Origin: a virus
Taxonomy: Duplodnaviria; Heunggongvirae; Uroviricota; Caudoviricetes
Strand: one strand, 5' to 3'
Length of the DNA stretch: 11,799 nt
IMG/VR virus record: IMGVR_UViG_2562617151_000001
Coordinates: 1 to 11,799 of that record
Made by a program: the position numbers and the translations under genes. The notes under the pieces are model-generated. The model ran no database searches. It saw only the letters and a program-made list of their open reading frames with translations, and was not told where the DNA came from. Positions 1-11,799 of this stretch are shown here, one piece after another. Every line of letters starts with the position of its first letter. Position 1 is the stretch's first letter.

Positions 1-1254
1 ATGCTGGAACAAATGGGCATTGCCGCGAAGCAAGCCTCGTATAAATTAGCGCAACTCTCCAGCCGCGAAAAAAATCGCGTGCTGGAAAAAATCGCCGATG
101 AACTGGAAGCACAAAGCGAAATCATCCTCAACGCTAACGCCCAGGATGTTGCTGACGCGCGAGCCAATGGCCTTAGCGAAGCGATGCTTGACCGTCTGGC
201 ACTGACGCCCGCACGGCTGAAAGGCATTGCCGACGATGTACGTCAGGTGTGCAACCTCGCCGATCCGGTGGGGCAGGTAATCGATGGCGGCGTACTGGAC
301 AGCGGCCTGCGTCTTGAGCGTCGTCGCGTACCGCTGGGGGTTATTGGCGTGATTTATGAAGCGCGCCCGAACGTGACGGTTGATGTCGCTTCGCTGTGCC
401 TGAAAACCGGTAATGCGGTGATCCTGCGCGGTGGCAAAGAAACGTGTCGCACTAACGCTGCAACGGTGGCGGTGATTCAGGACGCCCTGAAATCCTGCGG
501 CTTACCGGCGGGTGCCGTGCAGGCGATTGATAATCCTGACCGTGCGCTGGTCAGTGAAATGCTGCGTATGGATAAATACATCGACATGCTGATCCCGCGT
601 GGTGGCGCTGGTTTGCATAAACTGTGCCGTGAACAGTCGACAATCCCGGTGATCACAGGTGGTATAGGCGTATGCCATATTTACGTTGATGAAAGTGTAG
701 AGATCGCTGAAGCATTAAAAGTGATCGTCAACGCGAAAACTCAGCGTCCGAGCACATGTAATACGGTTGAAACGTTGCTGGTGAATAAAAACATCGCCGA
801 TAGCTTCCTGCCCGCATTAAGCAAACAAATGGCGGAAAGCGGCGTGACATTACACGCAGATGCAGCTGCACTGGCGCAGTTGCAGGCAGGCCCTGCGAAG
901 GTGGTTGCTGTTAAAGCCGAAGAGTATGACGATGAGTTTCTGTCATTAGATTTGAACGTCAAAATCGTCAGCGATCTTGACGATGCCATCGCCCATATTC
1001 GTGAACACGGCACACAACACTCCGATGCGATCCTGACCCGCGATATGCGCAACGCCCAGCGTTTTGTTAACGAAGTGGATTCGTCCGCTGTTTACGTTAA
1101 CGCCTCTACGCGTTTTACCGACGGCGGCCAGTTTGGTCTGGGTGCGGAAGTGGCGGTAAGCACACAAAAACTCCACGCGCGTGGCCCAATGGGGCTGGAA
1201 GCACTGACCACTTACAAGTGGATCGGCATTGGTGATTACACCATTCGTGCGTAA
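1..1254 (+). CDS. proA: gamma-glutamyl phosphate reductase (glutamate-5-semialdehyde dehydrogenase), complete, 417 aa
   Basis: ORF 1..1254 translates to [30 protein letters not shown]...[13 protein letters not shown], which I recognise as E. coli ProA at full length (aldehyde dehydrogenase fold). Its position immediately upstream of thrW matches the K-12 arrangement proA-thrW. Confidence 0.96.
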
Positions 1255-1368
1255 ATAAAACCGGGTGATGCAAAAGTAGCCATTTGATTCACAAGGCCAT
1301 TGACGCATCGCCCGGTTAGTTTTAACCTTGTCCACCGTGATTCACGTTCGTGAACATGTCCTTTCAGG

Positions 1369-1444
1369 GCCGATATAGCTCAGTTGGTAGAGCAGCGCAT
1401 TCGTAATGCGAAGGTCGTAGGTTCGACTCCTATTATCGGCACCA
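1369..1444 (+). tRNA. thrW: tRNA-Thr, anticodon CGU
   Basis: 76-nt sequence GCCGATATAGCTCAGTTGGTAGAGCAGCGCATTCGTAATGCGAAGGTCGTAGGTTCGACTCCTATTATCGGCACCA read directly: 7-bp acceptor stem GCCGATA/TATCGGC, D-loop AGTTGGTAG, anticodon loop TTCGTAA (anticodon CGT), T-arm GGTTCGACTCC, encoded CCA. thrW is the known integration target of P22-family integrases. Confidence 0.95.
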
Positions 1445-1458
1445 TTTAAATCAATAAG

Positions 1459-2622
1459 TTACACATCATTAGTACCTTCCTTATTTTTTGACTGGGACAA
1501 ATTTGGGACCGATGGGTTCAGGATCGAGTCTATTTGCCGTGCGTGTTCGGTAAGGTGATTAGGTGCGAGGTGAGCATATCGACGAACCATTTCGATAGAC
1601 TCCCAGCCTCCCATTTCCTGTAACACTGACAACGGGACACCGGCTTGAACCAGCCAACTTGCCCAGGTGTGTCTCAAGTCATGAAATCTGAAATCATCAA
1701 TACCAGCTCGTCTCAGCGCCGCTTTCCAGGCTGTGTTTGCGTCATATCGCATCTTCCTGACTGTTGGCGCTTTCGTTCCGTCTGGTTTGGTACAGCTTTC
1801 CTTGTACACAAATACCCAATGGTGATGATTCCCGATTTGTTTTTTCAATACGCGACATGCAGTATCATTCAGCGCAACGCCAATTGCGCGGTTTGATTTA
1901 CTCTCTTCCGGGTTTATCCATGCCACCCGGCGCTGCATATCTATTTGTTGCCATTCAAGGTTGATGATGTTCGAGCGTCTTAAGCCTGTTGCCAGTGCAA
2001 ATTCAACAACAGACTTTAATGGCTCCGGACATTCATCAATCAGCCTTTGTGCTTCATGAGGCTCCAGCCAGCGGATCCGTTTATTCTTTGGTTGAGGCAC
2101 TTTAATAATTGGTGCCTTATCCAGCATTTTCCATTCACGCTCTGCGGCTCTTAGTAGGGCCTTTATAAATGAAAGATGCGTAGCCTTCGTTGCAACGGAC
2201 GCTGGTTTTGGCGTGTATTCTGGAACAGGTTTCCCTTTTTTTCTGCATGCTTCTGCCCTGAGTTTCCAGTTTTCCTCATGACGCCGGTTCGTCATTTTCT
2301 GCATTGCTGAATAAATTTTTGATTCAGTAATGTCTCTTAGTTGCATTCCTGCGAAATGTTGAAGCCAGAATCCGATCCGGCTTTTGTCATCGTCCAGTGA
2401 TTTTTTATGTGCTTTCTCTTCAAGCCACCTGACACACGCTTCCTCGAACGTTATATCAGGTATTTCACCAAGTTTGCTGACCCGCCATGCTTCAGCCTTT
2501 AGCTTGTCATGGAGTTCTGTCGCCTGCCTTTTGTCCTTTGTTCCAAGAGACTGTTTAAATCTTTTACCGTTCGGCAATGTGAAACTGGCGTACCATATTT
2601 CACCTCTGCGGAAGAGTGACAT
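1459..2622 (-). CDS. int: phage integrase, tyrosine recombinase, P22 Int-like, 387 aa
   Basis: ORF translation [47 protein letters not shown]...[39 protein letters not shown] matches my recollection of P22 integrase almost end to end, including the C-terminal R..H..R..Y catalytic region. It is adjacent to the tRNA target; stop TAA at 1461-1459. Confidence 0.95.
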
Positions 2623-2849
2623 TTTCTTTCCTCTGTTATGCCATCACCCGCGCTCACCTGGACAGTATGCAGCGGAGACTGAAGAGCCGCAATGCAGGCT
2701 TGTCGTGTTGTGAGGTAAGGAGATTTATTCTTAGTGGGATCTTTGCGTGTTGCCTGAAGACGCCCTGTGCGTATCCAGTTAATGGCAGTCGGTCTGGATA
2801 TCTTGAGAAAATGACAGGCCTCATCGAGTGTGAGGCTGTATGGCTCCAT
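2499..2849 (-). CDS. xis: excisionase (P22 Xis-like), 116 aa
   Basis: The internal ATG at 2849-2847 gives [57 protein letters not shown]..., a P22-type Xis with a helix-turn-helix. The 28 codons upstream in the track ORF look like a read-through artefact. The ATG overlaps the stop of the upstream gene as TAATG. The 3' end overlaps int by 124 nt in another frame. Confidence 0.8.
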
Positions 2850-3154
2850 TATTTCACCTCTTGCTGTGACATTGTTGAAAAATGGATACCAGCTCGTTGC
2901 TGCCAGACGATCCAACCGAGAGTCATATCCCATGCCATGTATTCGTTATCGCCGTTTTTTGCTCTCCGACGATCTACTAAGTCACCGAAACGCTTTTCCA
3001 TGAATAATTCATAAGCTTCGCGTTCATCTGGTTCTACTTCCAGAGATCGGAGTGCGATTTCATAAGCACGGCGCTCAATATCGTCTCGCACGTCAAGGCT
3101 GCTGATACGCTCTTTAATTTCTTTAATCAGTTCTTTGTCGGTAAAAGTGGTCAT
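2849..3154 (-). CDS. YfdT-like prophage early-left protein, 101 aa, function unknown
   Basis: ORF MTTFTDKELIKEIKERISSLDVRDDIERRAYEIALRSLE...; its position and length fit the CPS-53 yfdT slot (from memory). Start ATG 3154-3152 overlaps the stop of the upstream gene as TAATG; its own stop overlaps the xis start. Confidence 0.7.
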   Translation of the reverse strand: MTTFTDKELIKEIKERISSLDVRDDIERRAYEIALRSLEVEPDEREAYELFMEKRFGDLVDRRRAKNGDNEYMAWDMTLGWIVWQQRAGIHFSTMSQQEVK

Positions 3155-3516
3155 TATGCTCCAGCCTCCGGTGCTTTTGGCATTACTGCCCAGTGAGTGA
3201 TATTGACGTTTTCAAGGTCCCCGACCTGAAATGTCCACTGCCATTCTCCGGTTTCTTTTTGTCCCCAGGTGTACCAGAGAGAACGCCAGCCAATTAGCCA
3301 GCCTTCTCCGTTAGCATCGAATAACAAAACACTTTCATTTGCTGGTGGCAGTTCAGTTGACACTGGTATTACTTTGTTTTCCTGTGCTGCACATTTAGCT
3401 TCAAGCGCATCGAATTTACGCACCAGGTATTCAGCATCTGTTTCATTTACTTTCAGATCTCGCGGTACACATCTCCCACGAAGAAACCCTTCCATTTCGA
3501 AAACATTCATGCGCAT
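3154..3516 (-). CDS. YfdS-like prophage early-left protein, 120 aa, function unknown
   Basis: ORF MRMNVFEMEGFLRGRCVPRDLKVNETDAEYLVRKFDALEAK...THWAVMPKAPEAGA. Coupled to neighbours: the upstream gene's TGA (3509-3507) overlaps ATG codon 3 of this ORF, and its stop overlaps the downstream start. Confidence 0.7.
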   Translation of the reverse strand: MRMNVFEMEGFLRGRCVPRDLKVNETDAEYLVRKFDALEAKCAAQENKVIPVSTELPPANESVLLFDANGEGWLIGWRSLWYTWGQKETGEWQWTFQVGDLENVNITHWAVMPKAPEAGA

Positions 3517-4043
3517 TTGCGTAACTCCGATAACTCGTTAAAGCGTTCCATAAACATCCCGTAGGCATGGCCCGGTGCCAGTGGAATCACGTTGAACATC
3601 TCTGTTGCCGGGATACCTTCCAGTACAGGCCAGAAAGAGCCATCATCAAGCCCGAGATCGCGGCGTTCGGTTGCCAGCATGATGAGATCGGCATATTTCA
3701 CGGGCGTACTCATAACTGGGGGTAACCCGTATTTCTCACGGATTACGGCGTCTATTTTTTCTTCCATTTGTTTATAGTCAGGAAGAAGGCGTTTCAGTGG
3801 TGCGGGAATGTCCTGACAATACGCTTCTGTTGCATCATGCATTAACGCTTCGAAAGCAAACTCCTGCGGTACCAGCTGGCTGCAAAGCACCGCATGTTGG
3901 GCGACGCTGTAGAAGTGTGAAAGATGCCCTGCAAAGCGACAGATATTTGAGAGGGAAACTGCGATATCGTTAATCACGATGTCGTCTTTATTTATCCTGT
4001 CATAATAAAAATGCTTCCCGGAAAAAGTTTTAATAAATGACAT
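3507..4043 (-). CDS. HD-domain phosphohydrolase, YfdR-like (putative 5'-nucleotidase), 178 aa
   Basis: Start chosen at MSFIKTFSGKHFYY (ATG 4043-4041), preceded by GGAG about 8 nt upstream; the track ORF starts 9 codons earlier without an SD. HD signature visible: ...HLSHFYSVAQHAVL...EALMHDATEAY.... The length matches my recollection of K-12 YfdR. Confidence 0.8.
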   Translation of the reverse strand: MSFIKTFSGKHFYYDRINKDDIVINDIAVSLSNICRFAGHLSHFYSVAQHAVLCSQLVPQEFAFEALMHDATEAYCQDIPAPLKRLLPDYKQMEEKIDAVIREKYGLPPVMSTPVKYADLIMLATERRDLGLDDGSFWPVLEGIPATEMFNVIPLAPGHAYGMFMERFNELSELRKCA

Positions 4044-4170
4044 TTTGTTCTCCACGTATATGCGCTGCACCGCGCTGAATTCTGGTAAAAGGAAGCCCTC
4101 ACCATCCGGTGATTATTGAGTTAATTACGTTTCCATAAATGCCCCCGCAGGGGCATTTGCAGTAATGAAA

Positions 4171-4995
4171 TCAGGCGGTGAAAGTACCAATAAAGGTTTC
4201 GACTTTGCTGTCTTTGAATTTCTCAACAAGCAGATCACGAAATTCGTTAGCCATTTCTTCCTGCACTGCTTCCAGCTGAATAATGCGCAGAACCAGTACA
4301 GGGCGATCACCAGTGATAATGCTGAGTCGTAATTTAAATGGACGTTCTTTCAGGCCTTCAAACGGAACGCATTTAAATTCAAATGCCACTGGCATAATGT
4401 CTTTGGTCTTCGCTTCGACAGACTCCATCAGGGAGCGTTTGCCGCTGAAGTCATTGTCTTCAAAATCAGCAGTCTGGTTCGCTTCAATTGTGATTTTACG
4501 GACTGCCGCAGCCGCTTTTGTTGCCTGAATGGCGTCACCATTAGCATCAAAGCCCACAAGGTAGTCGGCCCAGTCTTCAATCCATTCTGCCAGTGACTTC
4601 TGGGAGTTACGCTCGCCGTTAACAGACAACAGAGCAGAGAACGGTGCTGTCTTTTTCAGTTTGAGAGTGGCGGTGTTATCTGCGTGACCTGGTTCATCAA
4701 TAGTACCCAGGTTAAGCACACTGACGGCACGCATATTATCAGCATCGATAAAGCAGCGGGTGCCTTCATCTGCAAGATCTTTAGAATAACGGGTAAAGTC
4801 ATCGATGCTGGCAGTGGAAAGCGCACCACGGAAACGGAAGCGATTTAAATTAAATTTTTCCAGATCATGAATGCGGAAATTCTCAGGCAATGCCACAGCA
4901 TCGGCACCAATCTTACTGATAATTTCATTAACACCCTGAGCAGAAATAAGGGCATGGATTTGATTAATTGCGGTTGCGTCTAAGTTCTGAGACAT
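4171..4995 (-). CDS. YfdQ-like protein (I recall this as the DUF2303 family), 274 aa
   Basis: [60 protein letters not shown]...; SD GAGGA about 6 nt upstream of ATG 4995-4993. The order yfdP-Q-R-S-T-like is the same as in CPS-53. Confidence 0.8.
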
Positions 4996-5060
4996 AATAA
5001 GTCCTCACTATATAAAGATATTCAGTGATGAGATAAATAATCAGTTAATTAAAAACGATA

Positions 5061-5423
5061 TTAACGACCTGCTGCGCGGAGTTTTCCGTCAGGTTCACCG
5101 GCAAGAGTCAGTAACTGTCCCTGGTCTTCCTGCAGAATAGTCAGGCGACCACCGCGATTGACATACATCGGCGTTTCGGTGGTGTCTTCTTCGGAAATTT
5201 TCCCGCGGTTAGTCGGGCGAACATATGAGAGTTTGTGTTTGATTTTCACACGGTTCTCATCAAATGGTTCGATTTCCAGGTTGAGTGAGACCTTACCTTT
5301 GGTTTTCGTGTTCATCACACCGGAAGCGACTTCACTGAGAACTGCGCCGATTTTGGTTTCAAATACGCCGCCGTCCAGCTCCCCGATAAATGCATGCACA
5401 TCAGTACTGCGTTCGCTAGCCAT
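5061..5423 (-). CDS. YfdP-like prophage protein, 120 aa; the track ORF is N-terminally over-extended
   Basis: Start placed at MASERSTDVHAFIGELDGGVFETKIGAVLSEV (ATG 5423-5421) because GAGGAG lies about 8 nt upstream. The 106 codons upstream in the track ORF are R/C/P-rich low-complexity translation of GC-rich non-coding DNA. Confidence 0.65.
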   Translation of the reverse strand: MASERSTDVHAFIGELDGGVFETKIGAVLSEVASGVMNTKTKGKVSLNLEIEPFDENRVKIKHKLSYVRPTNRGKISEEDTTETPMYVNRGGRLTILQEDQGQLLTLAGEPDGKLRAAGR

Positions 5424-5439
5424 TTTGCTGCTCCTCATC

Positions 5440-5760
5440 ATATCGACCCTGCAAGGCCGATTAGTTTCTCCACAAAACAGAGAAGAACACCTGCGGTGGC
5501 AGCCGCCCGGATGGATTGGGTTATGAGCCCGTCGTCCGGTGATGCTCTTCTCTGTTTTGTAAAAAGGACGGTACCAGCCGGAAGCAAGGGTACAAACTGG
5601 TACCGCCGGGACTACACACAGCATAAAGTTGTGGTGCCGGGTGCCTCCCGGTGCCTGGCGAAGGTTGCACACCAGACGGGTGGGTATCCACAGAAGGTCG
5701 ACTGTCAGCCTCAACCTTAACCCGCGTGCGCTGAGCCGCATTCACCACAACGCTAAGAAT
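5440..5760. other. GC-rich structured non-coding block; candidate structured RNA or relic of a foreign element
   Basis: No credible ORF in any frame (all translations are R/P/C-rich). Contains a perfect 15-bp inverted repeat (5472-5486 with 5546-5560), a 9-bp stem (5569-5577 with 5597-5605) and long-range 9-nt complementarity (5628-5636 with 5743-5751). Visibly more GC-rich than the flanking phage DNA. Confidence 0.3.
5472..5560. repeat. perfect 15-bp inverted repeat ACAAAACAGAGAAGA / TCTTCTCTGTTTTGT separated by a 59-nt GC-rich spacer
   Basis: Read directly: arm 5472-5486 is the exact reverse complement of 5546-5560; 2 further complementary bases lie inside after one mismatch. Confidence 0.85.
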
Positions 5761-5824
5761 TCTCTCTGGTTGAAAATACTTAGCTGTTATGTGCCTGCTT
5801 TTAGCCACATCAGGCGAGGTGGAC

Positions 5825-5876
5825 CTGGTTATTCCCCAACAACAAGGATTCGGTTAATCTGGTTATCCCCAACAAC
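5825..5876 (+). repeat. tandem direct repeat CTGGTTAT(T)CCCCAACAAC x2, 34-bp period, immediately upstream of the 144-aa ORF
   Basis: Copy 1 at 5825-5843 and copy 2 at 5859-5876 differ by one extra T; a partial CTGGTT copy lies at 5766-5771. Copy 2 ends 5 nt before the AAGGA SD of the ORF starting at 5892. Confidence 0.8.
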
Positions 5877-5891
5877 GCAAAAGGAAAAGAA

Positions 5892-6326
5892 ATGTCCGGT
5901 AATATCTATACGCTGTACAAATCCCACTGTGAAAATGTTGGAAAGTATCGGGGCATTGAAATCAGTGGGGTAGTGTCATCAGTCGAAATAAGCAAAGTTG
6001 AATCAAGGGCAACATTACTTACTCTTCTGGACCTTGTCTTACATGAGCACCGGAAGAAATTCGGCACTCCCTATAATCAGTTGAATGGGAAAAAAGCTCT
6101 GGTTCACCTTATTCTGATGAAGCATCACTGGATGCCAAAACAGATTAATGAGATGAAATTTGATGAACTTCTTCTTTCAATTCAGGATGAATTCACGCTT
6201 GATAAAATAAGCGTAACCGCCCAGAAATTTTTAGATTATCGAGACTGGAGATCACAAATTCATCACTTTGATGATTTTGACGAAAATGAATGGGATCCTA
6301 ATTTGTCTGCACAATATCTAAAGTAA
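5892..6326 (+). CDS. hypothetical protein, 144 aa, no recognisable family; moron-like, opposite strand to the early-left operon
   Basis: ATG 5892 preceded by AAGGA with a 6-nt spacer; stop TAA 6324-6326. Protein MSGNIYTLYKSHCENVGKYRGIEISGVVSSVEISKVESRATLLTLLDLVLHEHRKKFGTPYNQ... has protein-like composition (K/E/D/H-rich, ordinary hydrophobic content). AT-rich codon usage contrasts with the neighbouring GC-rich block. Confidence 0.7.
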   Translation: MSGNIYTLYKSHCENVGKYRGIEISGVVSSVEISKVESRATLLTLLDLVLHEHRKKFGTPYNQLNGKKALVHLILMKHHWMPKQINEMKFDELLLSIQDEFTLDKISVTAQKFLDYRDWRSQIHHFDDFDENEWDPNLSAQYLK

Positions 6327-6504
6327 CATCCTGTGATAAAACCGTGATTTCCTGATCCAGTTTTTTTAAGGAGTCTATTGTTTCCTGTCGATAAGACAGC
6401 ACTTCACGAAGCTGGTTTATAGCTGCCAGCTTCTTTGCCATCCACTCGTAAATTTCCTCATTTGTGTATCCGGGCGCGACGATTTTGGGTTCTGTTTTGT
6501 GCAT
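6298..6504 (-). CDS. hypothetical small protein, 68 aa; first gene downstream of the putative P_L (the position of N)
   Basis: Start at MHKTEPKIVAPGYTNEEIYEWMAKKLAAINQLREVL... (ATG 6504-6502), preceded by a strong SD GAGGAGG about 7 nt upstream; the track ORF begins 5 codons earlier. The 3' end overlaps the 144-aa ORF by 29 nt (convergent). Confidence 0.6.
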   Translation of the reverse strand: MHKTEPKIVAPGYTNEEIYEWMAKKLAAINQLREVLSYRQETIDSLKKLDQEITVLSQDVTLDIVQTN

Positions 6505-6562
6505 TTCACACCTCCTCAAGTTATCAGTTACTTGTTGATGGGGACCAGATTGTTAAAGAGCT

Positions 6563-6590
6563 AAGCGTCCTGTAGGGCGCTTTTTTGTTG
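6563..6590 (+). terminator. intrinsic (rho-independent) terminator-like hairpin plus T-tract
   Basis: AAGCGTCC-TGTA-GGGCGCTT stem (8 bp including one G-U) followed by TTTTTT at 6581-6586. On the minus strand the stem is preceded by an A-tract and followed by a U-poor sequence, so it is mainly plus-strand and at most weakly bidirectional. Confidence 0.55.
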
Positions 6591-6669
6591 CTAACGAATC
6601 ACCCTAGACTTTATATGCCCCAGGCGGCTACTTCGTGGGCGTCCTGCCTGTTCGTTATCTTTGATATAA

Positions 6670-6740
6670 AATCTAACTTAACTTAGTTATTATGGCAAGA
6701 GAAAACACCAAACTTTTCTTAGTTCGGTGCCTTAGTTAGA
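6670..6740 (-). promoter_or_regulatory. putative O_L / P_L region (leftward early promoter with repressor operators)
   Basis: Heptamer CTTAGTT occurs at 6682, 6718 and 6731, the same motif as in the cI-cro intergenic region. Minus-strand candidate promoter: -35 TTGCCA (complement of 6693-6698), 17-nt spacer containing AACTTAGTT, -10 TAGATT (complement of 6670-6675). Confidence 0.4.
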
Positions 6741-6751
6741 GAAGAGAGGTC

Positions 6752-7378
6752 TTAGAGTTCGTATTGAACTCCTTTGACTACACCAATGATAAGGCAATTA
6801 CCATTGATAGGGATGTTGGGATACCGAGGATTTAATGGCACTAAAAACTTTTGAGGGCCATCGATGACTAATTTTTTTACTGTAGCTTCGTTTGTTCCAT
6901 CAAGTCGAGCGATGACTATTTTTCCATGACGAGGTTCTGCATCTGGATCTACAATCACTGTTGCGCCTTCTGGTATTGTTGGGAGGCCATTAGGGTTAGT
7001 CATGGAGTCACCTTTAACCTCTAATGCAAATGAGTTATCACCAATCTTTAATGATGTATCTACCCACTTGTCCACTTCACTAAACACTTCTGCTGCCCTG
7101 CACTCAGTAAACTGCCCAGCCTGAACCCACGATATTACAGGAACTCTGCGCATGTTTGTGACGAGTTTGCCTTCAAACTCAGCACCATAAAGAATGTAAT
7201 CTATTGACGTATTGAAGAACTTCGCTAATTTCGAAAGTGCCTCCCCACCAGGGGTATTGATGTCTTTCTCCCAGTACCCCACAGCAACGTCGCTTACTCC
7301 ACAAAATTTACCCAATTCTTTCTGGGACGTTCCGGTAACTCTTCTCAGAGCTTTTATACGCTGACCAACCGTTTCCAT
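6752..7378 (-). CDS. cI: prophage repressor, CI / P22 C2-like (N-terminal HTH plus C-terminal S24 LexA-like autopeptidase domain), 208 aa
   Basis: ORF METVGQRIKALRRVTGTSQKELGKFCGVSDVAVGYWEKD... (HTH) ... ISWVQAGQF...LEVKGDSMTNP...ATVIVDPDAEPRHGKIVIARLDG.EATVKKL...GNCLIIGVV. Ser-Lys dyad context and overall architecture match the lambda CI / P22 C2 class. Divergent from cro. Confidence 0.92.
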   Translation of the reverse strand: METVGQRIKALRRVTGTSQKELGKFCGVSDVAVGYWEKDINTPGGEALSKLAKFFNTSIDYILYGAEFEGKLVTNMRRVPVISWVQAGQFTECRAAEVFSEVDKWVDTSLKIGDNSFALEVKGDSMTNPNGLPTIPEGATVIVDPDAEPRHGKIVIARLDGTNEATVKKLVIDGPQKFLVPLNPRYPNIPINGNCLIIGVVKGVQYEL

Positions 7379-7396
7379 AGGAGCACCATTTCTTGA

Positions 7397-7468
7397 ATTG
7401 CTAAGTAATCTTAGTTTTTATTGACCAAAGATAGATTTGTAATTAGCATCTAATAAAACTTAGTTTGG
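7397..7468 (+). promoter_or_regulatory. putative O_R / P_R region between cI and cro
   Basis: Near-palindrome CTAAGTAATCTTAG at 7401-7414; CTTAGTT at 7410 and 7459; 9-mer AACTTAGTT at 7457-7465 is identical to 6680-6688. Candidate P_R: -35 TTGACC 7421-7426, 17-nt spacer, -10 TAGCAT 7444-7449, then SD GGAGG 7467-7471 and cro ATG 7476. Confidence 0.45.
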
Positions 7469-7475
7469 AGGGCGT

Positions 7476-7676
7476 ATGACAACTGACGATATCGAAAGCT
7501 ACTTCGGCAGTATTGAGAAAGTTGCTGCTTTTTTCGGCATAACAACTGAAGCCGTTTATCAGTGGCGAAACCGTCCGGGCCAGTTAATTCCAAAAGGACG
7601 TGCAGCAGAAGCTGCATATAGAACTTGCGGACGGTTGCCATTTAAACCTGAGCTTTATGAAAAATCTAATGGATAA
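7476..7676 (+). CDS. cro: Cro-like transcriptional regulator (Cro / YdaS-type HTH), 66 aa
   Basis: [69 protein letters not shown]; a small HTH protein divergently transcribed from the repressor, with an SD in front. Confidence 0.85.
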   Translation: MTTDDIESYFGSIEKVAAFFGITTEAVYQWRNRPGQLIPKGRAAEAAYRTCGRLPFKPELYEKSNG

Positions 7677-8265
7677 ATCGATTAACAGAAACCACAGAAC
7701 GATGAGGCTAACCGTGGGTAAGCATCACTGGAAAGTAGAAAAACAGCCTGAGTGGTACGTGAAAGCTGTCAGAAAAACTATCGCAGCGTTGCCGGGTGGT
7801 TACGCTGAAGCAGCTGACTGGCTGGATGTAACAGAGAACGCATTATTTAACCGCCTTCGTGCCGATGGCGATCAGATTTTCCCGCTGGGATGGGCAATGA
7901 TTTTGCAACGTGCTGGTGGAACTCACTTCATTGCTGACGCTGTGGCGCAGTCTGCAAATGGCGTCTTTGTGTCTCTTCCTGATGTCGAGGATGTGGACAA
8001 CGCCGATATCAACCAACGCCTGCTGGAGGTCATTGAACAGATCGGCAGTTATTCAAAACAGATTCGTTCAGCAATTGAAGACGGTGTAGTGGAACCGCAT
8101 GAGAAGACAGCAATTAACGACGAGCTGTACCTCTCAATTTCGAAGCTGCAGGAGCATGCAGCACTGGTCTACAAAATTTTTTGCATTTCAGAAAGTAATG
8201 ACGCCCGCGAGTGTGCAGCTCCGGGCGCCGTGGCGTGTCGTGACTGTGGAGAAACTAACGCATGA
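7657..8265 (+). CDS. CII-like phage regulatory protein (YdaT / CP76-type); start uncertain
   Basis: ORF ...[73 protein letters not shown]...; lies directly after cro as in lambdoid layouts. Candidate starts are ATG 7657 and ATG 7669 (the latter 5 nt upstream of the cro stop); the track's 7600 start is a GTG only 1 nt after an SD-like AAAGGA and is unlikely. Confidence 0.65.
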
Positions 8266-8440
8266 ACAGTTTAACAACACACTACCGTCGCTCGCAACTG
8301 ATTGCGCTTCCTGTACCGGGTGGAAAAGCGAAGGTGGAGTATTGCTATGCAGTAAATGTACCAGGTGGCAGGGTAATTGTAACCCACAGCTTTGCAGAGT
8401 GGGCTGTGGGTGATTTTAACCGGCAAAAGGAGACAGTCCT

Positions 8441-8620
8441 TTGCGACAAGTTAACCGCTGGTTCAAAGATCACTACGGAGTACCCGTCAGAGTCATTCGT
8501 TGGGAGCCGGAAACACAACGGGTTATCTACCTCCGCGAAGGCTATGAGCATGAATGCTTCAGTCCGCTCGAACAGTTTCGTCGTAAATTCAGGGAAATAG
8601 AGGTCGGTCATGAGCACTAA
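8441..8620 (+). CDS. possible small protein (59 aa) with TTG start; alternative to the ATG-initiated 112-aa ORF 8262..8600
   Basis: AAGGAG sits 8 nt upstream of TTG 8441. The frame gives [59 protein letters not shown], a protein-like composition, ending at TAA 8618-8620 (overlapping the initiator start by 11 nt). It is absent from the ATG/GTG-based track. Confidence 0.35.
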
Positions 8621-9581
8621 ATTAACCGGCTATGTATGGGATGGTTGCGCTGCGTCAGGCATGAAATTATCCAGCGTGGCAATTATGGCCCGCCTGGCTG
8701 ATTTCAGTAATGACGAAGGTGTGTGCTGGCCATCAATTGAAACCATTGCCCGTCAGATTGGCGCGGGGATGAGTACCGTCAGAACGGCTATCGCACGGCT
8801 GGAAGCAGAAGGCTGGTTAACGCGTAAGGCGCGTCGCCAGGGTAACCGCAATGCGTCGAATGTTTATCAGCTTAACGTTGCGAAGCTTCAGGCAGCGGCA
8901 TTTTCTCAATTGTCAGATTCTGACCCGTCAAAATCTGACGCATCAAAATCTGACCCGTCAAAATCTGACGCATCAAAATCTGACCCGTCAAAATTTGATG
9001 CGTCGAAATCTGGCAAAAAAGCGGGTTTTCACCCGTCAGAATCTGGCGGGGATCCGTCAGTAAAATCAAAACATGATCCGTCAGATAAAAAAACTTCTCG
9101 TCCGGACGCTTCGCAACCGGACACGCAGACGGCTGAACAGGAGTTTTTAACTCGCCATCCTGATGCGGTTGTATTCAGCCCTAAAAAGCGCCAGTGGGGA
9201 ACGCAGGATGATTTGACCTGCGCACAGTGGCTCTGGAAAAAAATCATCGCCCTGTACGAGCAGGCCGCCGAATGTGACGGCGAGGTGGTTCGTCCCAAAG
9301 AACCGAACTGGACAGCCTGGGCAAACGAAATTCGCCTGATGTGTGTGCAGGATGGTCGTACTCACAAACAAATCTGCGAGATGTACAGCCGCGTCAGCCG
9401 CGATCCGTTCTGGTGCCGTAACGTGCTCAGCCCGTCGAAGCTGCGGGAAAAATGGGATGAGCTTTCCCTGCGCTTATCGCCGTCCGTCAGCACGTACACA
9501 GAAAAACGCGAAGACCCGTACTTCAAAGCCAGTTACGACAACGTGGACTACAGCCAGATCCCGGCAGGATTCAGGGGGTGA
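8610..9581 (+). CDS. phage replication initiation protein (lambda O-like role; N-terminal HTH, internal iteron-encoded linker), 323 aa
   Basis: N-terminus [70 protein letters not shown] is a typical helix-turn-helix replication-protein domain. The internal SDPSKSDASKSDPSKSDASK stretch is encoded by a 15-bp iteron array, the lambdoid ori-within-initiator arrangement. SD AGAGG precedes ATG 8610. Confidence 0.85.
   Translation: MSTKLTGYVWDGCAASGMKLSSVAIMARLADFSNDEGVCWPSIETIARQIGAGMSTVRTAIARLEAEGWLTRKARRQGNRNASNVYQLNVAKLQAAAFSQLSDSDPSKSDASKSDPSKSDASKSDPSKFDASKSGKKAGFHPSESGGDPSVKSKHDPSDKKTSRPDASQPDTQTAEQEFLTRHPDAVVFSPKKRQWGTQDDLTCAQWLWKKIIALYEQAAECDGEVVRPKEPNWTAWANEIRLMCVQDGRTHKQICEMYSRVSRDPFWCRNVLSPSKLREKWDELSLRLSPSVSTYTEKREDPYFKASYDNVDYSQIPAGFRG
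8919..9008. repeat. iteron array: six tandem 15-bp units alternating TCTGACCCGTCAAAA / TCTGACGCATCAAAA; probable prophage origin of replication
   Basis: Units at 8919, 8934, 8949, 8964, 8979 and 8994 (the last degenerate), with degenerate copies flanking (8911-8918, 9009-9023) and GATCCGTCAG repeated at 9051 and 9075, followed by an A-rich stretch at 9084-9095. Located inside the initiator CDS. Confidence 0.85.
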
Positions 9582-9583
9582 TC

Positions 9584-10072
9584 ATGAGTCTTTTGAATGA
9601 AGTTCAGAAATACATTGAAGCCCATCCGGGGTGTACTTCCGGAGACATTGCGGATGCTTTTGCAGGTTACTCACGGCAGCGCGTTCTGCAGTCAGCAAGC
9701 AAGTTACGTCAGAGTGGGCGTGTGGCTCACCGTTGTGAAGGGGATACACGCAGACATTTCCCGCGCCTGACTGAGAGAGCGCAGGAGGCGGAACCGCAAC
9801 CAGTTCGTGAAACCAGACCTGTGCGCAATTTCTATGTCGGCACTAACGACCCGCGGGAGATTTTGTGCCTGACCCGCCAGGCTGAAGAACTGGAGTCCAG
9901 GGGCTTATACCGTCGTGCTGCAACGGTGTGGATGGCGGCATTCCGTGAAAGCCACTCCCAGCCAGAACGAAACAATTTTCTGGCGCGTCGTGAGCAGTGT
10001 TTACGGAAAAGCAGCAAGCGCGCTGTATCGAGTGATGAGTGGTATCTGTCAGGGAATTACGTGGGGGCGTAA
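9584..10072 (+). CDS. PerC-family (Pch-like) regulator domain protein with an N-terminal winged-helix-like region, 162 aa
   Basis: C-terminal LTRQAEELESRGLYRRAATVWMAAFRESHSQPERNNFLARREQCLRK matches the PerC/Pch signature (LE..GLWRRAA..W ... RR..C). ATG 9584 is preceded by GGGGG; the GTG 9578 in the track is less likely. The stop overlaps the next start as TAATG. Confidence 0.6.
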   Translation: MSLLNEVQKYIEAHPGCTSGDIADAFAGYSRQRVLQSASKLRQSGRVAHRCEGDTRRHFPRLTERAQEAEPQPVRETRPVRNFYVGTNDPREILCLTRQAEELESRGLYRRAATVWMAAFRESHSQPERNNFLARREQCLRKSSKRAVSSDEWYLSGNYVGA

Positions 10073-10398
10073 TGACGACGTTAACTCAATGCCAGCAGCA
10101 GGTGCTGGATATGCTGATTTCTTATCAGAAAGAGCGTGGCTTTCCGCCAACCAATCAGGAGGTGGCAACCATGCTGGGATACCGTTCAGTGAATGCAGCG
10201 GTAGAGCATCTTCGCGCACTGGAGAAAAAAGGCGTCATCACGATAAAGCGTGGCGTGGCCCGGGGGATAACGCTTCATACCGCGGTGAAGGACGACGACA
10301 GCGAGGCGGTCGGGATTATCCGCGCACTGCTTGCCGGTGAGGAAAACGCAAGGTTGCGTGCAACCCACTGGTTACATGAGAGGGGCCTGAAAGTATGA
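10072..10398 (+). CDS. LexA N-terminal DNA-binding-domain protein without the S24 peptidase domain, 108 aa
   Basis: MTTLTQCQQQVLDMLISYQKERGFPPTNQEVATMLGYRSVNAAVEHLRALEKKGVITIKRGVARGITL aligns by eye with the LexA DNA-binding domain (LexA: ...[55 protein letters not shown]...). No Ser/Lys peptidase domain follows. Confidence 0.7.
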   Translation: MTTLTQCQQQVLDMLISYQKERGFPPTNQEVATMLGYRSVNAAVEHLRALEKKGVITIKRGVARGITLHTAVKDDDSEAVGIIRALLAGEENARLRATHWLHERGLKV

Positions 10399-10784
10399 AG
10401 CTGATCCTGCCTTTTCCGCCCAGCGTGAACACGTACTGGCGACACCCCAACAAAGGGGCGTTTGCAGGTAAGAGCCTGATAAGCGCGGCGGGGCGCAAAT
10501 TCCAGAGCGCGGCGTGTGCAGCAATAGTTGAGCAGTTACGTCGTCTGCCAAAACCAACGTCGGCACCTGCTTCAGTGGAGATCGTGTTGTTTCCTCCGGA
10601 TAACCGGATCCGCGATCTGGACAACTATAACAAGGCGCTGTTTGACGCCCTGACCCACGCGGGTGTGTGGGAAGACGACAGCCAGGTGAAAAGAATGCTG
10701 GTGGAGTGGGGACCGGTTATCCCGGAAGGGAAGGTCGAGATCACTATCAGTAAGTACGAGAAAACGGCGGGTGCAGCCGCCTGA
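10395..10784 (+). CDS. rusA: Holliday-junction resolvase RusA (crossover junction endodeoxyribonuclease), 129 aa
   Basis: MKLILPFPPSVNTYWRH...DNRIRDLDNYNKALFDALTHAGVWEDDSQV... follows the RusA pattern (PP..N.YYRH ... RRDLDN..K...DALT.AG.W.DD.QV). ATGA overlap with the upstream stop; typical nin-region gene. Confidence 0.88.
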   Translation: MKLILPFPPSVNTYWRHPNKGAFAGKSLISAAGRKFQSAACAAIVEQLRRLPKPTSAPASVEIVLFPPDNRIRDLDNYNKALFDALTHAGVWEDDSQVKRMLVEWGPVIPEGKVEITISKYEKTAGAAA

Positions 10785-10803
10785 TCAAGAGGAGAAACGA
10801 AGT

Positions 10804-11247
10804 ATGAATAATCTGATGGTCATTGATGGTATTGAAGTTCGTCGTGATGCTTATGGGCGTTACAGCCTGAACGATCTGCATCGCGCAGCAGTAGCATCTG
10901 GTGCAAATGCCAGAACCAAGGAGCCGGGAAAGTTTCTTTCCAGCCAACAAACTGTTGAGCTTGTTCATGAATTGACCAACACCCAGAATTTGGGTGTTGA
11001 CCCGGTGAGTGTGATTCATGGGGGAAATGAACGGGGAACTTATGTCTGCAAGGAACTGGTGTATGCCTATGCAATGTGGATCAGCCCGTCATTCCATCTG
11101 AAGGTGATCCGTACTTTCGACATGGTAACCAGCGCACCGGAAAAATTATCCGGACAGGCTGCTGACAAGATGCAGGCTGGTGTGATTCTGCTGGACTTTA
11201 TGCGTCGGGAGTTACCCGAACCGCGACAAGCCCTATATCCGGAGTAA
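10804..11247 (+). CDS. KilA-N domain protein, 147 aa
   Basis: Start at MNNLMVIDGIEVRRDAYGRYSLNDLHRAA (ATG 10804, SD AAGAGGAG 9 nt upstream); the GTG 10771 in the track is unlikely. ...GTYVCKELVYAYAMWISPSFHLKVIRTF fits the conserved KilA-N C-terminal block. Confidence 0.7.
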   Translation: MNNLMVIDGIEVRRDAYGRYSLNDLHRAAVASGANARTKEPGKFLSSQQTVELVHELTNTQNLGVDPVSVIHGGNERGTYVCKELVYAYAMWISPSFHLKVIRTFDMVTSAPEKLSGQAADKMQAGVILLDFMRRELPEPRQALYPE

Positions 11248-11250
11248 TCC

Positions 11251-11799
11251 ATGCATCGTATAGACACGAAAACCGCGCAGAAGGATAAGTTCGGCGCGGG
11301 TAAGAACGGTTTTACCCGTGGTAACCCCCAGACAGGCACGCCTGCCACCGATCTGGATGATGACTACTTTGACATGTTGCAGGAGGAGCTTTGCAGCGTG
11401 GTGGAGGCATCCGGTGCCAGCCTAGAGAAGGGGCGGCACGACCAGTTGCTTACCGCGCTTCGTGCGCTGCTGTTAAGCCGCAAGAATCCGTTTGGCGATA
11501 TCAAATCGGACGGCACGGTGAAAACGGCTCTCGAAAACCTTGGTTTGGGAGAAGCGGCGAAAAGGGATGTGGGCACAGGAGATAATCAGATACCGGATAT
11601 GGGAGCATTCGCTTCTGGTTCGGGATGGTTCAGGCTACCAGGTGGATATATTGTTCAGTTTGGCACTTTTTCAGGAAACACGACCCGCTTTATCAGTGGA
11701 CACTTCCCTATACCATTCCCTAATCAGCCGATGGTTTCAGTCAGTGTTATGTCTGATGCCGTTCAGTCAGACCCGTCGAATCCTCGCCCCGCAGGTTTT
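11251..11799 (+). CDS. tail-fibre-like protein, N-terminal 183 codons; 3' end beyond the window
   Basis: ATG 11251 with GGAG 7 nt upstream; open to the window end (absent from the track because there is no stop). Translation [74 protein letters not shown]...[21 protein letters not shown] resembles phage tail-fibre proteins by recollection; the family assignment is tentative. Confidence 0.5.

Follow-up and report, generated by a model that had tools for sequence, protein, structure and literature searches.

A conserved convergent pair of ECs1072-family and YdfC-like genes beside the immunity region of a lambdoid prophage, and its possible role in lysogeny

Among the described systems closest to the locus treated here are the SieB-Esc-sas superinfection exclusion of P22 and lambda, reportedly described by Ranade and Poteete in 1993 and cited in PMC7067206, and the BstA/aba prophage defense with its cognate self-immunity, which is said to have been described by Owen et al. 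in 2021; lambda RexAB and the dicBF operon of Qin are two further points of comparison. The locus itself centers on a 144-codon open reading frame (ORF) at 5892-6326 (+) of an 11,799-nt stretch of viral DNA (positions 1 to 11,799 of IMG/VR virus record IMGVR_UViG_2562617151_000001, hereafter the window). It encodes a member of the uncharacterized ECs1072 family of prophage proteins. We report that members of this family usually stand in a convergent pair with a small YdfC-like gene, and we weigh a tentative reading in which the pair acts in the lysogen.

The resemblance to SieB-Esc-sas is one of logic: a lysogen-expressed gene in or near the PL operon by the immunity region, a phage antidote, and antisense RNA coupling the two states would be common to both. 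The 144-aa protein differs in having no PF14163 match, sequence similarity or membrane segment, and the putative antidote here is a separate convergent gene, whereas there it is an internal in-frame product. BstA/aba is also alike in logic, being a single prophage protein encoded beside the repressor locus, with an element carried by the phage that protects its own lytic cycle (PMC7067206 depicts the bstA locus), but BstA is ~300 aa long with a KilA-N-like domain, its antidote is a DNA element within the gene, and no similarity was detected. RexAB offers the parallel of accessory genes beside the repressor with expected expression in the lysogen; however, RexAB is co-transcribed with cI on the same strand, whereas the 144-aa ORF lies on the strand opposite cI, and RexB is a polytopic membrane protein, whereas the 144-aa protein appears soluble and has no RexAB homology. 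The likeness to the Qin dicBF operon (ydfA-ydfB-ydfC-dicF-dicB-ydfD) lies in the convergent 68-aa partner, which is YdfC-like and a promoter-proximal early gene, and in the long region that follows it and holds a small RNA (sRNA), DicF in Qin and an STnc100/PasD-like RNA in the window; the Qin/PPompW-type loci differ in lacking an ECs1072 gene. NCBIfam NF033230 and PHROG 5286 describe the same family as the 144-aa ORF, but the YdfC-like pairing and the antisense placement are absent from the family description.

The 144-codon ORF is almost certainly a real protein-coding accessory gene. It begins with ATG and is preceded at a distance of 6 nt by a Shine-Dalgarno sequence, AGGA (5882-5885, +), as an initial annotation made from the sequence alone had recognized. 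That annotation also described the codon usage of the ORF as AT-rich, and its GC content of 37.9% (GC3, 37.9%) is indeed the lowest among the genes of the window, compared with a window mean of 48.9% and 46-50% for yfdP/yfdQ. The label of orphan without a known family did not hold, as the protein scores 156 bits (E = 6.4e-46) with NF033230 ("ECs1072 family phage-associated protein"), whose cut-off is 70, with residues 4-144 aligned to positions 2-142 of the 142-position profile, and matches phrog_5286 over its full length (residues 1-144 of 144, E = 6.2e-90). NF033230 is a hypothetical-equivalog model of an uncharacterized family, and the NCBI annotation pipeline PGAP names identical genes likewise (the ORF equals SfIV_36 and is WP_000016389-like). 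Members of NF033230/PHROG 5286 are ~145-155 aa long and always set in prophages, and the family occurs in prophages of E. coli, Shigella, Salmonella, E. albertii and Serratia. When 1.84 billion cluster representatives were searched exhaustively with a profile, 76 clusters (50% identity) were recovered, mostly single-domain proteins of 145-155 aa. In an alignment of 58 sequences, R54, L64, G66, A69, H72 and W134 are nearly invariant, and R39 and W80 are conserved among the closer members. By megablast, the ORF is present at ≥95% identity in 421 of 5,426 complete E. coli genomes and occupies many different sites in the chromosome.

The full-length family matches and the 76 clusters of similar length place the ORF far beyond chance. 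A chance ORF antisense to the PL transcript, with no gene there at all, would agree with the failure to recognize a promoter, but it is effectively refuted by those matches together with the conserved length and motifs, a confidently predicted fold and the good Shine-Dalgarno sequence. The family name, phrog_5286, NF033230 and WP_000016389 go unmentioned in searchable papers. The term ECs1072 was found once in the literature, in a microarray table where it carries a growth-phase-regulated signal in uninduced Sakai cultures (PMC2241611); this namesake gene, from prophage Sp4 of E. coli O157:H7 Sakai, is now designated ECs_5703.

Convergent with the 144-codon ORF is a 68-aa ORF (6298-6504, -; phrog_1744; PGAP WP_000549626) that starts at an ATG behind a strong GAGGAGG ribosome-binding site and is the first ORF of the PL transcript; the program-made ORF list gives it as 73 aa from an upstream TTG. 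The 3' ends of the two ORFs overlap by 29 nt (6298-6326), exactly as first annotated. The 68-aa product is 38-39% identical to annotated YdfC proteins of Qin-like and PPompW phages. Its identification as an N-like antiterminator was rejected, since its sequence contains no arginine-rich motif.

Each inspected contig carrying a distant family member (20-38% identity) also had a small opposite-strand ORF at the 3' end of that gene, and these small ORFs have in common the N-terminal motif EP-x-I/F-x-x-G-x-[ST]-x-E/D-E-L-x-x-W. A partner profile was then built as an iterated hidden Markov model (HMM) seeded with three sequences, the 68-aa ORF of the window, an ORF of contig L010 and an annotated YdfC, and searched against 4,791 six-frame segments. 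The first round recovered the partners in L021/L022 and L016, the second those in L017, L011/L012 and L013, and the third those in L026, L027/L028, Sakai Sp4 and L018. Partner E-values ranged from 4e-28, obtained for the window segment 6301-6552 (-), to 5e-4, and the only other matches of the iterated profile were two phages with YdfC alone. Across the 13 independent lineages of this census, a YdfC-like ORF was found on the opposite strand at the ECs1072 3' end in 10, so that the 68-aa ORF, which the initial annotation had treated as a mere neighbor, is the YdfC-like half of a conserved convergent pair. A tblastn search of phage genomes with the Sakai protein gave no match, and viral contigs scanned with distant members as queries yielded a single locus.

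The pair occurs in four operon settings: just downstream of PL (the window, L010, L013, L018 and L027/L028), between cII and O in the PR operon (Sakai Sp4, with the namesake ECs1072, and L011), between a Q-like gene and the holin (L017), and in a P2-like early operon after cox (L021/L022). In every paired case the YdfC-like gene is sense and the ECs1072 gene antisense to the lytic operon. The 3' junction elsewhere shows overlaps of 62-310 nt and, in one lineage, a 34-nt gap; since the junction varies from -34 to 310 nt while the pairing is kept, it has been rebuilt repeatedly while the linkage survived. Persistence of the pair at ~20-30% protein identity and with a remodeled overlap argues for selection on the linkage and not for inertia. 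The two halves of the window allele are found in nearly the same number of complete E. coli genomes, 421 for the ECs1072 gene and 415 for the YdfC-like gene. Taken together, these data make it probable that the ECs1072 and YdfC-like genes form a functional pair. The convergent pairing, the four operon contexts and a fold without a structural match were not found in the searchable literature and are new here, while the gene family is already catalogued and its class, a prophage accessory gene by the immunity region, is familiar.

Two further features of the paired loci were observed. In Sakai Sp4 (L025, 19166-19674, +) and L018 (5191-5649, -) the YdfC-like ORF is open for 150-170 codons and overlaps the ECs1072 gene on the opposite strand by ~280-310 nt; the portions that overlap resemble each other in the two lineages. 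In L010, a phage CsrA homolog (PF02599; 2-169, -) adjoins the distant ECs1072 member in the early-left operon.

In the window, both ORFs and the PL leader form a mosaic unit, or cassette, at 5782-6657 that is ~99% identical to prophage RM9088. The adjacent sRNA region differs by 39% between the two and the immunity region of RM9088 is unrelated; a cassette kept ~99% identical beside unrelated immunity regions points to recent movement among heteroimmune phages. The regions flanking the sRNA region on both sides are ~99% identical, and the sRNA, differing by 39% between them, is a different allele. The window and RM9088 show 4 and 5 differences, too few for the ratio of nonsynonymous to synonymous substitution rates (dN/dS).

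Related phages place the cassette in a cargo hotspot. The left flank is common to relatives up to 5822 (SfV, SfII and mEp460) or 5876 (PhiR29_1), and the right flank from 6545, 6593 or 6610 onward. SfV, SfII, mEp460, PhiR29_1, ST64B and 118970_sal3 keep these flanks and carry other cargo or none between them: orf33 (-) in SfV, a helix-turn-helix (HTH) protein in mEp460, a phrog_1244 ORF (+) in PhiR29_1, and almost nothing in ST64B. PhiR29_1 retains the 5' region with both direct repeats (described below) and the (+) terminator around a different (+) ORF, and on this basis it can be argued that 5823-6590 is a slot for expression on the (+) strand. The PhiR29_1 ORF (L003, ~3180-3709, +) encodes a ~163-aa coiled-coil protein of phrog_1244 with a CxxC...CxxC zinc-ribbon-like motif, and the deposited coding sequence at 2981-3709 is probably over-extended at its 5' end; a search of the literature on PhiR29/ECOR13 found nothing on this locus. 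L027 and L028 are otherwise similar prophages that share the same ECs1072 homolog but differ by a SieB gene (PF14163; L027 3827-4321, +). In L027 this gene is inserted between the repressor and the YdfC-like gene and has the orientation of the ECs1072 gene.

The replaceability between kept flanks, the terminator of its own, the orientation and the composition of the 144-codon ORF are those of a moron. This raises the alternative that the gene is an independent moron with a host-directed function in physiology or virulence and no functional tie to the YdfC-like gene, the pairing being the descent of one insertion whose overlapping 3' ends are hard to separate. The low GC content, the hotspot location and the replaceability agree with such a gene, as do the cataloguing of the family merely as "phage-associated", the three lineages without a recognizable partner and the growth-phase-regulated signal of the Sakai namesake. 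Against it, the pair has been kept down to ~20-30% protein identity in lambdoid and P2-like phages and in four operon positions, and the remodeling of the overlap points to selection on the linkage. We therefore regard an independent moron as an unlikely explanation.

The orientation of the two genes relative to the lytic promoter is central to how the pair might work. PL was placed at 6698-6670 (-), with TTGCCA (6698-6693) and TAGATT (6675-6670) separated by 17 nt, and is flanked by OL operator-like palindromes of the form CTAA-N6-TTAG (6673-6686 and 6709-6722). The same motif recurs in OR (7401-7414 and 7450-7463), where the palindromes define a PR candidate at 7421-7449 (+). With PL so placed, the 144-codon ORF reads against it from a position between the immunity region and the early-left genes, in line with the initial annotation. 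An intrinsic terminator on the (+) strand (6563-6590; stem 6563-6582 of 8 pairs, then T6; centroid -11.5 kcal/mol) lies beyond the start of the 68-aa gene, where it had first been annotated. On the (-) strand a G·U pair of its stem becomes a C-A mismatch, the hairpin is weaker and there is no U-run; since the U-run and the G·U pairing exist only on the (+) strand, the terminator is a (+) strand signal. If a (+) transcript reaches it, that transcript would be antisense to the entire 68-aa gene, its ribosome-binding site and ~100 nt of the PL leader. In homologs, the (+) terminator is often inside the partner gene.

Just before the Shine-Dalgarno sequence of the 144-codon ORF are two direct repeats of ~20 nt each with a 34-nt spacing, CTGGTTAT(T)CCCCAACAAC (5822-5877, +), possibly a regulator site or a weak promoter region. 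Between 5560 and 5895 the best sigma-70-like sites have only 7 of 12 matches, and several ECs1072 homologs have promoter-like sites upstream. Upstream of the 68-aa ORF, at 6532-6551, is a degenerate inverted copy of the repeats. The inverted repeat 5856-5875/6532-6551 was considered as a recombination or regulator site and rejected as a general feature, since its local alignment score of 23 falls below a maximum of 26 in shuffled sequence and nothing comparable was seen in seven other lineages.

This antisense arrangement allows two other explanations. In the first, the ECs1072 protein, the convergent transcript, or both would control the lysis-lysogeny decision by damping the lytic operon or neutralizing a pro-lytic YdfC-like protein, and would stabilize lysogeny in the manner of oop/cII or PaQ antisense control in lambda. 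The ECs1072 gene is always antisense and promoter-proximal within a lytic operon, the Sakai Sp4 gene lies in the cII-O interval that corresponds to the position of lambda oop (for the role of oop, see PMC7067206), and the (+) transcript would extend over the ribosome-binding site of the YdfC-like gene and ~100 nt of the PL leader. Close relatives lack the cassette, which therefore cannot be a core regulator, the 144-aa protein gave no DNA-binding motif, and YdfC-like genes usually occur without ECs1072; both the damping role and its stabilizing effect on lysogeny are in our judgment improbable. In the second, the active species would be the long (+) transcript itself, an antisense exclusion RNA directed against superinfecting phages that have the PL leader and ydfC-like region in common, with the protein secondary. 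The transcript would be complementary to the 68-aa gene along its full length and to a portion of the leader, which heteroimmune relatives conserve, and STnc6030 of BTP1 provides a precedent (PMC7067206). Conservation of amino acids over most of the length, the 76 clusters and the confident fold would be unexpected of an RNA scaffold, however, and the frequent location of the terminator inside the partner gene in homologs also counts against it; we give this explanation little weight.

The predicted structure of the 144-aa protein provides no closer identification. The AlphaFold2 model, built from the 58-sequence alignment, is confident (pLDDT 92, pTM 0.85) and all-helical with eight helices. 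The protein is 17 kDa with a pI of 6.4 and a GRAVY of -0.48; its maximum 19-residue Kyte-Doolittle hydropathy is 0.84, no transmembrane segment was found by hydropathy, and by these measures it is soluble. Pfam, PADLOC and PDB sequence searches with single-sequence, 5-sequence and 58-sequence profiles returned no match. Several candidate identities were rejected. A sub-threshold NCBIfam match to the UpaP162 restriction enzyme scored 13 bits against a cut-off of 100. A HEPN-type RNase requires R-x(4-6)-H in a four-helix bundle, and the conserved R54 and H72 lie 18 residues apart; Foldseek listed HEPN chains at no better than E 4-8, with TM scores of 0.22-0.28. An HD identity likewise fails on its defining motif, and a membrane exclusion protein of the SieB (PF14163) or RexB type is excluded by the lack of a Pfam match and of a transmembrane segment. 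A type II toxin-antitoxin operon does not fit, since the genes are convergent and not co-directional and neither protein matches a toxin or antitoxin in Pfam, NCBIfam or PADLOC.

The explanation we favor treats the locus as a module, a convergent two-gene cassette with overlapping 3' ends just downstream of PL, in which the YdfC-like gene is sense and would be transcribed only when the lytic promoter fires, and the ECs1072 gene is antisense. In the lysogen, with PL repressed, a (+) strand ECs1072 transcript would extend to the terminator at 6563-6590 and mask any YdfC-like message by covering the gene and its ribosome-binding site in antisense. Upon induction or infection, PL transcription would collide with, and be antisense to, the ECs1072 message, and the YdfC-like protein would be made. 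ECs1072 would thus be a lysogen-phase effector, acting either in phage exclusion or abortive infection or as a guard against stray lytic expression, and during the phage's own lytic growth it would be cancelled by the YdfC-like protein and by convergent transcription.

Accessory prophage loci are typically antisense to lytic genes, and sieB/sas and STnc6030 of BTP1 are precedents for antisense-coupled exclusion (PMC7067206). Circumstantial support for an effector comes from the SieB neighbor in L027, the (+)-biased terminator, the promoter-like sites of homologs and the microarray signal of ECs1072. The YdfC-like gene occurs without ECs1072 in 19 of 25 phage records, and no ECs1072 gene was found in L019/L020, which served as the Qin-type/PPompW-type comparison; ECs1072 nearly always with a YdfC-like gene, and YdfC-like genes often alone, is the pattern expected if ECs1072 is a potentially harmful or blocking component and the YdfC-like protein its antidote.

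Several observations weigh against this explanation. In 5650-5900, upstream of the 144-codon ORF, no sigma-70-like site reached a score of 7.5 out of 12, PADLOC-DB v2.0 returned no defense family at E ≤ 1 for the 144-aa or the 68-aa protein, and Foldseek of the AlphaFold2 model against PDB and BFVD gave no match at E ≤ 0.001 and so no informative structural neighbor. YdfC is itself without known function (PMC5069750). Three of the 13 lineages have no recognizable partner, namely L023 and L024, which are the most divergent, and L029, whose contig ends 365 nt downstream, and the linkage could endure merely because overlapping 3' ends separate poorly. Finally, PhiR29_1 and SfV are without both genes, so neither is required by the phage.

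On balance, we give a lysogen-phase effector paired with the YdfC-like protein a probability of roughly 0.35. The broader statement, that the locus is a lysogeny-phase accessory module functionally coupled to the YdfC-like gene, may be held with the same or somewhat more confidence, reaching even odds at best. On expression, we lean slightly towards production of ECs1072 chiefly in the lysogen, in inverse relation to PL. An effector-plus-antidote exclusion system, argued by analogy, is a tentative proposal and rather unlikely, and it is doubtful that the pair is a two-component prophage immunity system of lambdoid and P2-like phages, in which a soluble effector of new fold aborts or excludes infecting phages and is switched off in the phage's lytic program both by convergent transcription with antisense pairing and by the YdfC-like protein as antidote. 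A defense role for the 144-aa ORF is a plausible hypothesis. The initial annotation had singled out the ORF as a defense or lysogeny candidate, and this survives in part: the antisense position relative to PL, the cargo hotspot and the SieB gene beside the L027 member speak for it, while PADLOC homology, a transmembrane segment and a recognized promoter are missing.

If the pair is functional, it would represent a new-fold module for defense or lysogeny control with a convergent overlapping layout, one gene sense and one antisense, and the window allele by itself reaches ~8% of complete E. coli genomes. A functional pair would also open a first way into the function of YdfC, encoded by a K-12 y-gene in the dicBF operon, and if the immunity-system interpretation is true, phages with a YdfC-like gene alone, such as that of the Qin dicBF operon, would carry an anti-defense or escape factor. 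It would further single out the interval between yfdP and cI in SfV/SfIV/e14/CPS-53-like prophages as a cargo hotspot worth mining. Should the pair lack a function, the ORF is another uncharacterized moron.

The PL leader itself contains further elements. Beside the hairpin, at 6550-6561 (-), is GCTCTTTAACAA, the sole exact boxA copy in the window, which we take to be a perfect match to the rrn-type boxA consensus. Its presence suggests, from sequence, Nus-factor-dependent antitermination of the early-left transcript, and no N-like arginine-rich protein is encoded, the first PL ORF being the YdfC-like protein. The hairpin at 6563-6582 has a double character, as part of the (+) terminator and, on the (-) strand, as an element preceding the boxA-like sequence. 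At the 5' end of the predicted PL transcript, a 41-nt element (6614-6654) is 95% conserved in the Salmonella phages ST64B and 118970_sal3, where the neighboring homologous sequence is only ~77% identical. It is not an operator, because the immunity types differ, and its predicted fold is unremarkable.

The window as a whole begins with proA (1-1254) and tRNA-Thr(CGU) (1369-1444), followed by a lambdoid prophage of the SfIV/SfV/e14/CPS-53 type. The integrase (1459-2622, -) is followed by the excisionase region, a yfdR-like HD hydrolase (3507-4070, -), yfdQ/DUF2303 (4171-4995, -) and yfdP (true extent ~5061-5423, -). Beyond the cassette are the S24/HTH cI-like repressor (6752-7378, -) and cro (7476-7676, +), then ymfL and an O-like replication gene. 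Shigella phage SfIV is 99.2% identical over positions 5700-6656 and has the target ORF annotated as SfIV_36, a "hypothetical protein". The 226-aa ORF at 5061-5741 (-), annotated as SfIV_34, is an in-frame extension of yfdP through the sRNA region; yfdP is ~120 aa in other records, and PGAP treats the upstream part as a frameshifted pseudogene. For a 114-aa ORF at 5629-5973 (+), SfIV_35, which overlaps the start of the target ORF, no support was found, and both SfIV_34 and SfIV_35 look like over-annotations.

Between the cassette and yfdP, on the strand of the PL transcript, is an STnc100-like structured RNA (Rfam RF02076; 5558-5781, -), which matches the full model at 42.3 bits against a gathering threshold of 47 (E = 1.6e-6) and whose position parallels that of DicF downstream of ydfC in Qin. 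STnc100 has been reported as a relative of the PasD prophage sRNAs (bioRxiv 10.64898/2026.05.13.724894). Within the O-like replication gene, a tandem array at 8919-9012 (+) with a 15/30-nt period (TCTGACCCGTCAAAA, 6.3 copies) codes for DPSKSDASKS repeats and is probably an iteron-type origin; the same array gave spurious microRNA matches in Rfam.

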